DNA of 64,000 bases from Escherichia coli (GTDB lineage Bacteria > Pseudomonadota > Gammaproteobacteria > Enterobacterales > Enterobacteriaceae), in assembly GCF_001677475.2 (NCBI RefSeq), contig NZ_CP015229.1; one strand, given 5' to 3'. Positions 59,048 to 59,426 of this stretch are shown piece by piece. The position numbers and the translations under genes were made by a program. Below the pieces are notes generated by a model that saw only the letters and a list, made by a program, of their open reading frames with translations, searched no databases and was not told where the DNA came from. The stretch's first letter is position 1. Each line of letters begins with the position of its first letter.

Positions 59048-59055
59048 TAATAAAA

Positions 59056-59084
59056 GCACGCCACCTTCGGGTGGCGTTGTTTTA
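59056..59084 (+). terminator. Rho-independent terminator after ytfP
   Basis: ACGCCACC-ttcg-GGTGGCGT followed by TGTTTTA. Confidence 0.6.
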
Positions 59085-59370
59085 TGCGATGTATCTCGCG
59101 ATTTTTTTTGTAACTTTCCCATCTTTTGCTTTTCTCTCCGAGCCGCTTTCCATATCTGCAATCGCATAAAAAACTCTGCTGGCGTTCACAAATGTGCAGG
59201 GGTAAAACGGGGGCACGCTTTGAACGGTGAGTATGAGTGAGGTCGGCTAACTTCCAGCAAGTGGCTATGAACAGCAAAATGGTGGTCGAGTTTAGCTTGT
59301 TCTTACCGTTCAAGCCTTTCAACTGCTGAAAATAATAATAGTGGAGTAGATAGTTTATAAATTGCGGGCA

Positions 59371-59409
59371 TAAAAAAACCCTTACTAACCGAAGCCCGGT
59401 GTTCAGGGT
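59371..59409 (-). terminator. Rho-independent terminator after ppa
   Basis: On the minus strand, hairpin AACCCTGAACACCGGGCTTCGGTTAGTAAGGGTT followed by TTTTTTT. Confidence 0.5.
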
Positions 59410-59426
59410 TATTACGCTAGAAGAAC

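Follow-up and report, generated by a model that had tools for sequence, protein, structure and literature searches.

Escherichia coli K-12 has its toxin–antitoxin genes chpS and chpB precisely in the interval from ytfP to ppa, as the original prediction stated, and an E. coli sequence in which they are missing from that site raises the question of whether the module was once present there and lost, or never arrived at all. We addressed this question in a 64-kb stretch of E. coli DNA, referred to here as the window, in which ytfP ends at 59047 and ppa, encoded on the minus strand, ends at 59427, leaving a spacer of 379 bp (59048-59426). The prediction had described about 380 bp with terminators for both genes, no credible open reading frame and no chpS-chpB pair, and each of these points is borne out: both terminators were found, and tblastn searches with K-12 ChpS and ChpB revealed no intact copy of either gene in the 64-kb window and only a fragmentary ChpB in the spacer. 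We conclude, with a probability of roughly 0.9, that the spacer is a relic allele of the ytfP–ppa locus, carrying a dead chpSB toxin–antitoxin cassette. The features on which the argument draws, and an insertion sequence that lies further downstream, are as follows.

58706-59047, plus strand: ytfP, gamma-glutamylcyclotransferase family, the left border; a 113-aa ORF whose protein is identical to the ytfP-annotated protein of E. coli genomes
59058-59108, plus strand: intrinsic terminator of ytfP, from a terminator scan; hairpin GCCACC-TTCG-GGTGGC with a T-run, then a second small hairpin and T8
59109-59209, plus strand: leader left over from the chpSB cassette, with homology to the K-12 sequence upstream of chpS
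59210-59218, no strand assigned: junction of the first deletion, from alignments; a 9-bp filler, GGGGCACGC, substitutes for positions 2005-2316 of the K-12 locus (L001)
59219-59349, plus strand: chpB relic, codons 7-48 and the final GTG-GAG-TAG (GTG-GAA-TAA in K-12), from local alignment, tblastn and, for the tail, comparison by eye
59219-59315, plus strand: long imperfect RNA hairpin, a predicted fold, with arms TTTGAACGG... and ...CCGTTCAAG
59370-59410, minus strand: terminator hairpin of ppa, from folding; AACCCT...AGGGTT, then U7
59427-59957, minus strand: ppa, inorganic diphosphatase, the right border; a 176-aa ORF that carries the ppa annotation in matching genomes
60766-62265: istA of ISEc10
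62262-63017: istB of ISEc10

The chpB relic and the rest of the spacer

The original prediction had proposed aligning the spacer to K-12 to see whether the K-12 genes form an insertion with defined endpoints; what the alignment returned was not an empty site but a chpB relic, flanked by shared leader and downstream sequence. When the window-specific middle of the spacer (59210-59352) was aligned locally with the K-12-specific part, using stricter gap costs and shuffled controls, positions 59219-59344 paired with nucleotides 19-145 of K-12 chpB at 72% identity with one 1-nt gap, and the local score of 52 stands against 9.6 ± 1.3, with a maximum of 18, in 500 shuffles. A tblastn search with K-12 ChpB placed residues 15-48 at 59242-59343 (E = 1.5e-6, 59% identity), with two stops within the match. 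Three-way MAFFT alignments and global alignments with cheap gaps masked this homology, scattering the relic over chpS and chpB. The tail at 59341-59349, compared by eye, matches the last codons of chpB, a correspondence clearest in the commonest relic allele, which reads ATG-GTG-GAA-TAG. Among chpB genes, those of Escherichia are the nearest to the relic (72-75%), and comparison with chpB of other genera gave no significant similarity; derivation from the chpB of another genus was rejected, Escherichia chpB being the closest.

The fragment is heavily damaged as a coding sequence. In the chpB frame it contains stops at 59228 (GGA→TGA, codon 10), 59234, 59248 and 59293, and the loss of 1 nt after 59239 shifts the frame. 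Its 35 substitutions relative to K-12 chpB are split 11/12/12 by codon position and are biased in direction (18 GC→AT against 4 AT→GC), GC content having gone from 54% to 43%; this pattern is one of unconstrained, pseudogene-like decay. K-12 ChpB constitutes a full PemK/MazF domain (PF02452, residues 8-114 of 116) and scores 90 bits in a Pfam search that finds no match for the conceptual translation of the relic, while K-12 ChpS is a MazE/AbrB-type antitoxin (PF04014). About one third of the toxin domain is left in the relic and two thirds are gone; of the antitoxin there is none, tblastn with ChpS finding nothing in the spacer and, in the window as a whole, a best hit of E = 0.83 at an unrelated site.

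Two deletions separate the spacer from the K-12 arrangement. The first, of about 312 bp, covers 49 bp of promoter, operator and Shine–Dalgarno sequence, the whole of chpS and chpB codons 1-6. The second, of 201 bp, covers chpB codons 49-115; its junction falls in a GGTGG direct repeat near 59340-59344, and it lies between two near-repeats, GCTGGTGG and GGTGGTGG. Six genera share a conserved operator palindrome upstream of chpS, GTTATACTTTGTATAAC, which matches nothing in the window even when three mismatches are allowed. The window thus holds no intact toxin ORF, no adjacent ChpS gene and no operator palindrome, and nothing functional of the chpSB module is left in the spacer.

An ancestor of this lineage thus bore chpS-chpB at the ytfP–ppa site, as K-12 does today. 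The first deletion took away the antitoxin, the operator and promoter and the toxin start, probably in one step, and the joint loss of the antitoxin and the toxin's translation start would have provided a safe exit from an addictive module. The second deletion fell between the short GGTGG repeats, and the remaining ~130 bp has drifted without coding constraint, accumulating the four stops, the frameshift, the evenly spread codon-position changes and the GC→AT bias.

The rest of the spacer also bears the imprint of the cassette. The leader is 86% identical across the segment that aligns to positions 1853-2004 of the K-12 locus; it also aligns, more weakly, to the regions upstream of chpS in other genera, and it is absent from the short, truly empty spacers of other genera. 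The chpSB cassette is the source of some 270 of the 379 bp, so that the earlier description of the spacer as only non-coding DNA is right in functional terms and incomplete as to origin. The ytfP terminator (stem 59058-59077 with its T-run; −24.1 kcal/mol, z −5.6) has its hairpin kept in every Enterobacteriaceae genus examined, and the ppa terminator is identical or nearly so between strains bearing chpSB and strains bearing the relic. No plus-strand promoter was found by a scan of 58900-59550, and an Rfam scan of the spacer gave no family match, its one sub-threshold hit, to an S15 leader, lying inside ppa and being judged due to chance. The antisense ORF at 58984-59322 (112 aa), which the prediction had already distrusted, was rejected as a gene: it starts with TTG, has no Pfam match and is not conserved between alleles, being split into other frames in the commonest spacer allele. 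At present the spacer serves simply as the place where the convergent transcripts of ytfP and ppa end, and the remainder is probably inert filler.

Further downstream, ytfQ, which encodes the binding protein of a galactofuranose ABC transporter, is cut after about codon 133 by the IS21-family element ISEc10 (window 60267-63639), and the remainder of ytfQ appears to restart near 63070. A query spanning the ytfQ–ISEc10 junction was not covered to 80% or more by any of 5426 complete E. coli genomes; the insertion thus seems confined to this strain, and it should inactivate the ytfQRT-yjfF galactofuranose transporter.

Distribution and age of the relic and intact alleles

Both states of the locus are common in E. 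coli. Intact chpSB is present in 3100 of 5426 complete genomes (57.1%) and the relic sequence in 2296 (42.3%), always on the chromosome and with a median of one copy and at most 2 per genome. These population counts leave little room for a second chpSB elsewhere in the genome of this strain. A third gene, esiB, occurs in 188 of the 5426 genomes (3.5%), which, if every esiB genome also has the relic, leaves about 39% of genomes with the relic and without esiB. In all three esiB-carrying strains examined, esiB sits between ytfP and the relic; the position of the relic downstream of esiB implies that the esiB allele arose on an already dead chpSB background. The esiB gene occupies the ytfP–ppa site in E. 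coli B2 strains. In E. coli SCU-301 (L087 1-504) esiB is annotated as a pseudogene with an internal stop, and the relic of this strain is the closest to that of the window among the matches listed, at 99.3%.

Two genomes, HH45 and HH97, looked at first sight like carriers of young relics with a K-12-like interior. Both are RefSeq 'complete' genomes from one Canadian project in which near-pure G/C stretches surround a mosaic of relic-like and chpB-like sequence (HH45, L003 1861-1991; HH97, L089 621-740 and 860-960), and PGAP calls partial PemK/ChpB pseudogenes there. We rejected them as young relics and regard them as probable assembly or polishing artefacts because of the G/C-only stretches, the mosaic sequence, the differences between the two and the lack of a third genome with the allele.

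We also surveyed the locus across species by a YtfP-based scan of one genome per species. E. whittamii and three cryptic Escherichia lineages have intact chpSB about 214 nt past the ytfP gene, and a relic with the junctions seen in the window is present in the E. albertii type strain and in the cryptic-clade genome SCPM-O-B-8794. The deletion junctions are identical in the E. coli relic alleles, the esiB-carrying strains, the cryptic-clade genome and the E. albertii type strain. A decayed allele common to E. coli and E. albertii is older than either species, and the loss of chpSB would accordingly predate the split between them. Between the window and E. albertii the spacer is 87% identical, as against 73-88% at third codon positions of tamB, ytfP and ppa, which argues that the spacer diverged at an approximately neutral rate by vertical descent. 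Taken with the counts of relic and intact alleles in E. coli, the relics of E. albertii and the cryptic clade make the locus an old two-allele polymorphism, in which relic and intact forms would have coexisted in Escherichia ever since the loss, probably being swapped when homologous recombination took place across the conserved genes on either side.

Between the window and K-12 the relic differs at 28% of positions, compared with 2-4% in the flanking genes, implying either great age with long coexistence of the alleles or the import of one allele from another lineage. The allele classes are 14% apart in the non-coding left flank, beside adjacent genes that differ by only 0.3-2%, which indicates that both haplotypes are old. 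It is possible, if on balance doubtful, that instead of continuous coexistence of the two alleles the relic is the older resident and that the chpSB of modern E. coli was re-acquired later from another Escherichia lineage, replacing the relic by homologous recombination across ytfP and ppa. The separate long histories suggested by the left flank fit such a course, as does the scatter of both states over the genus, with chpSB in E. whittamii and several cryptic lineages and the relic in E. albertii and one other; no donor and no recombination breakpoints have been identified, however, and the affinity of the relic to Escherichia chpB indicates that both alleles come from the same genus-level lineage. 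Re-acquisition would in any case leave the conclusion for the window unchanged, in that the module has been lost from it.

A hairpin within the relic

The part of chpB that survives coincides with a long hairpin, which originates in an inverted repeat of Escherichia chpB and is found in the intact gene as follows.

K-12 L001 2317-2413: intact chpB hairpin, chpB codons 7-39, from folding; the same segment in L005 and L007

In intact Escherichia chpB this is an imperfect hairpin of about 34 bp in the 5' third of the gene, with folding energies of −49 to −52 kcal/mol (z −2.7 to −3.3). It was absent from chpB of all five other genera or isolates folded (Lelliottia, Enterobacter, Kluyvera, Pseudocitrobacter and isolate RIT691), on which ground we rejected it as a general feature of chpB mRNA. 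In the window, positions 59210-59352 fold at −44.1 kcal/mol (z −2.9) on the plus strand, the minus strand folding poorly, and the homologous K-12 chpB segment has the same topology at −49.8 (z −2.7). The fold of the relic is therefore strand-specific, and it is rich in G·U pairs.

For comparison with decay alone, we simulated 1000 descendants of the K-12 segment carrying the observed number and spectrum of substitutions, whose minimum free energies averaged −29.0 ± 3.7. Over 125-126 nt the relic of the window reaches −38.6 (p = 0.012), the commonest allele −42.3 (p = 0.003) and the cryptic-clade relic −45.6 (p < 0.001), so that the E. coli and cryptic-clade hairpins are more stable than 98.8 to >99.9% of the simulated descendants; the E. 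albertii relic, at −30.6, is no more stable than decay alone would leave it (p = 0.32, z +0.1). This extra stability could mean, on the strength of modelled folds, that part of the relic is not inert. The 34 pairs of the K-12 hairpin include 22-23 that are unchanged in the relic, 3 kept after a one-sided change, 2 kept after a two-sided change and 5 broken. One clear compensatory pair, G·U→U-A, falls on the nonsense codon itself.

Selection for the hairpin as a putative plus-strand element, whether a barrier to ytfP read-through, a 3' stabiliser of that transcript or an insulator between ytfP and ppa, would account for the persistence of this particular fragment, for the strand-specific, G·U-rich folding, for the results of the simulations in E. 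coli and the cryptic clade and for a compensatory change that includes a nonsense mutation. We nonetheless consider it very doubtful. Compensatory pairs number only 1-3 overall in alleles that are not independent, and the covariation term in RNAalifold is small; substitutions are not significantly rarer in stems than in loops (Fisher p = 0.03-0.6); the strong ytfP terminator stands upstream of the relic, which is without a promoter of its own and has no Rfam match; and divergence of the entire spacer proceeds at the neutral rate. With related alleles, few tests and an unsupportive E. albertii, the signal of selection is weak, and we read the hairpin as an inherited inverted repeat. The broader proposition, that selection has putatively kept an Escherichia-specific hairpin from a time before E. 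coli and E. albertii parted and that the chpSB alleles form a balanced polymorphism across species, as opposed to one sustained by drift and recombination, strikes us as a long shot.

The locus in other genera and among known toxin–antitoxin systems

Outside Escherichia, divergent chpSB modules (63-78% amino-acid identity) occur at the same offset of about 214 nt in Lelliottia, Enterobacter asburiae, Kluyvera genomosp. 1, Pseudocitrobacter and an Enterobacteriaceae isolate. Most species of Citrobacter, Salmonella, Klebsiella and Enterobacter have a minimal spacer of about 100-160 bp or unrelated cargo, the truly empty spacers of this length (in Citrobacter, Klebsiella, Pluralibacter and others) consisting of the two terminators alone. 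Fragmentary matches in the spacers of Citrobacter sedlakii (L027 3430-3562) and Enterobacter cloacae DSM 26481 (L033 5100-5168), to ChpB residues 63-107 or ChpS residues 9-31, suggest that the cassette has also decayed independently in genera other than Escherichia. Many Enterobacteriaceae spacers carry 1.6-2.7 kb of cargo unrelated to chpSB (L016, L017, L033, L041, L045, L051, L054, L080 and others), and at least 12 further loci have no ppa within 3 kb of ytfP. Small insertions accumulate at the ytfP–ppa site, which behaves as a hotspot for them.

The original prediction had held that the strain either lacks the module or never acquired it; the first part stands for this locus and for the window, and the second, an ancestrally empty site into which K-12 chpSB was inserted with defined endpoints and which this lineage never filled, is hardly credible, for although the minimal spacers of many genera make the cassette look inserted on a family-wide view, or fully lost there, the homology of ~130 bp to the interior of the chpB gene and the chpS-upstream leader refute it, implying that the site once held the cassette.

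Loss from a site that once held the cassette has modest consequences. The ChpB mRNA interferase is missing from strains with the relic allele, which make up about 42% of complete E. coli genomes, so that results obtained with K-12 chpB, including those from strains with multiple toxin–antitoxin deletions, are not transferable to them. The relic was unannotated in all 25 records among the matches listed, and surveys of presence and absence will consequently score the locus as empty. The absence of a toxin–antitoxin module can thus reflect ancient loss rather than non-acquisition, which bears on the debate over whether chromosomal modules are selected or merely persist and decay.

The polymorphism of the locus has already been published. 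According to the text available of Pastorello et al. (2013, mBio, PMC3735183), the ytfP–ppa locus of 47 genomes carried esiB in 15%, chpBS in 53% and neither in 32%; the window corresponds to the 'neither' state. The same portion of that paper treats this third state as simple absence, whereas we find that the 'neither' and esiB alleles both hold a chpB relic. Neither there nor in a full-text literature search of partial coverage did we find a description of a chpB remnant. The decay of chromosomal toxin–antitoxin systems in E. coli has been reviewed (PMC7167474), and the relic is an ordinary, textbook instance of it.

Compared with the type II system chpS-chpB of K-12 (chpBI/chpBK; MazEF/PemIK type), the window has the same site, leader and terminators and clear chpB homology, but is without chpS, the operator, the promoter and the chpB start, and is therefore a relic of that system rather than a member of it. 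A parallel is offered by ccdO157 (Mine et al. 2009, cited in PMC7167474), which the accessible text of the review presents as a chromosomal type II module at a conserved site, intact or degraded by deletions and nonsense mutations. Like chpSB, so far as that account goes, it is intact in some strains and degraded in others at one and the same site; it differs in belonging to another toxin–antitoxin family and another locus, and the dead chpSB allele also occurs in E. albertii and is older than the species that carry it.
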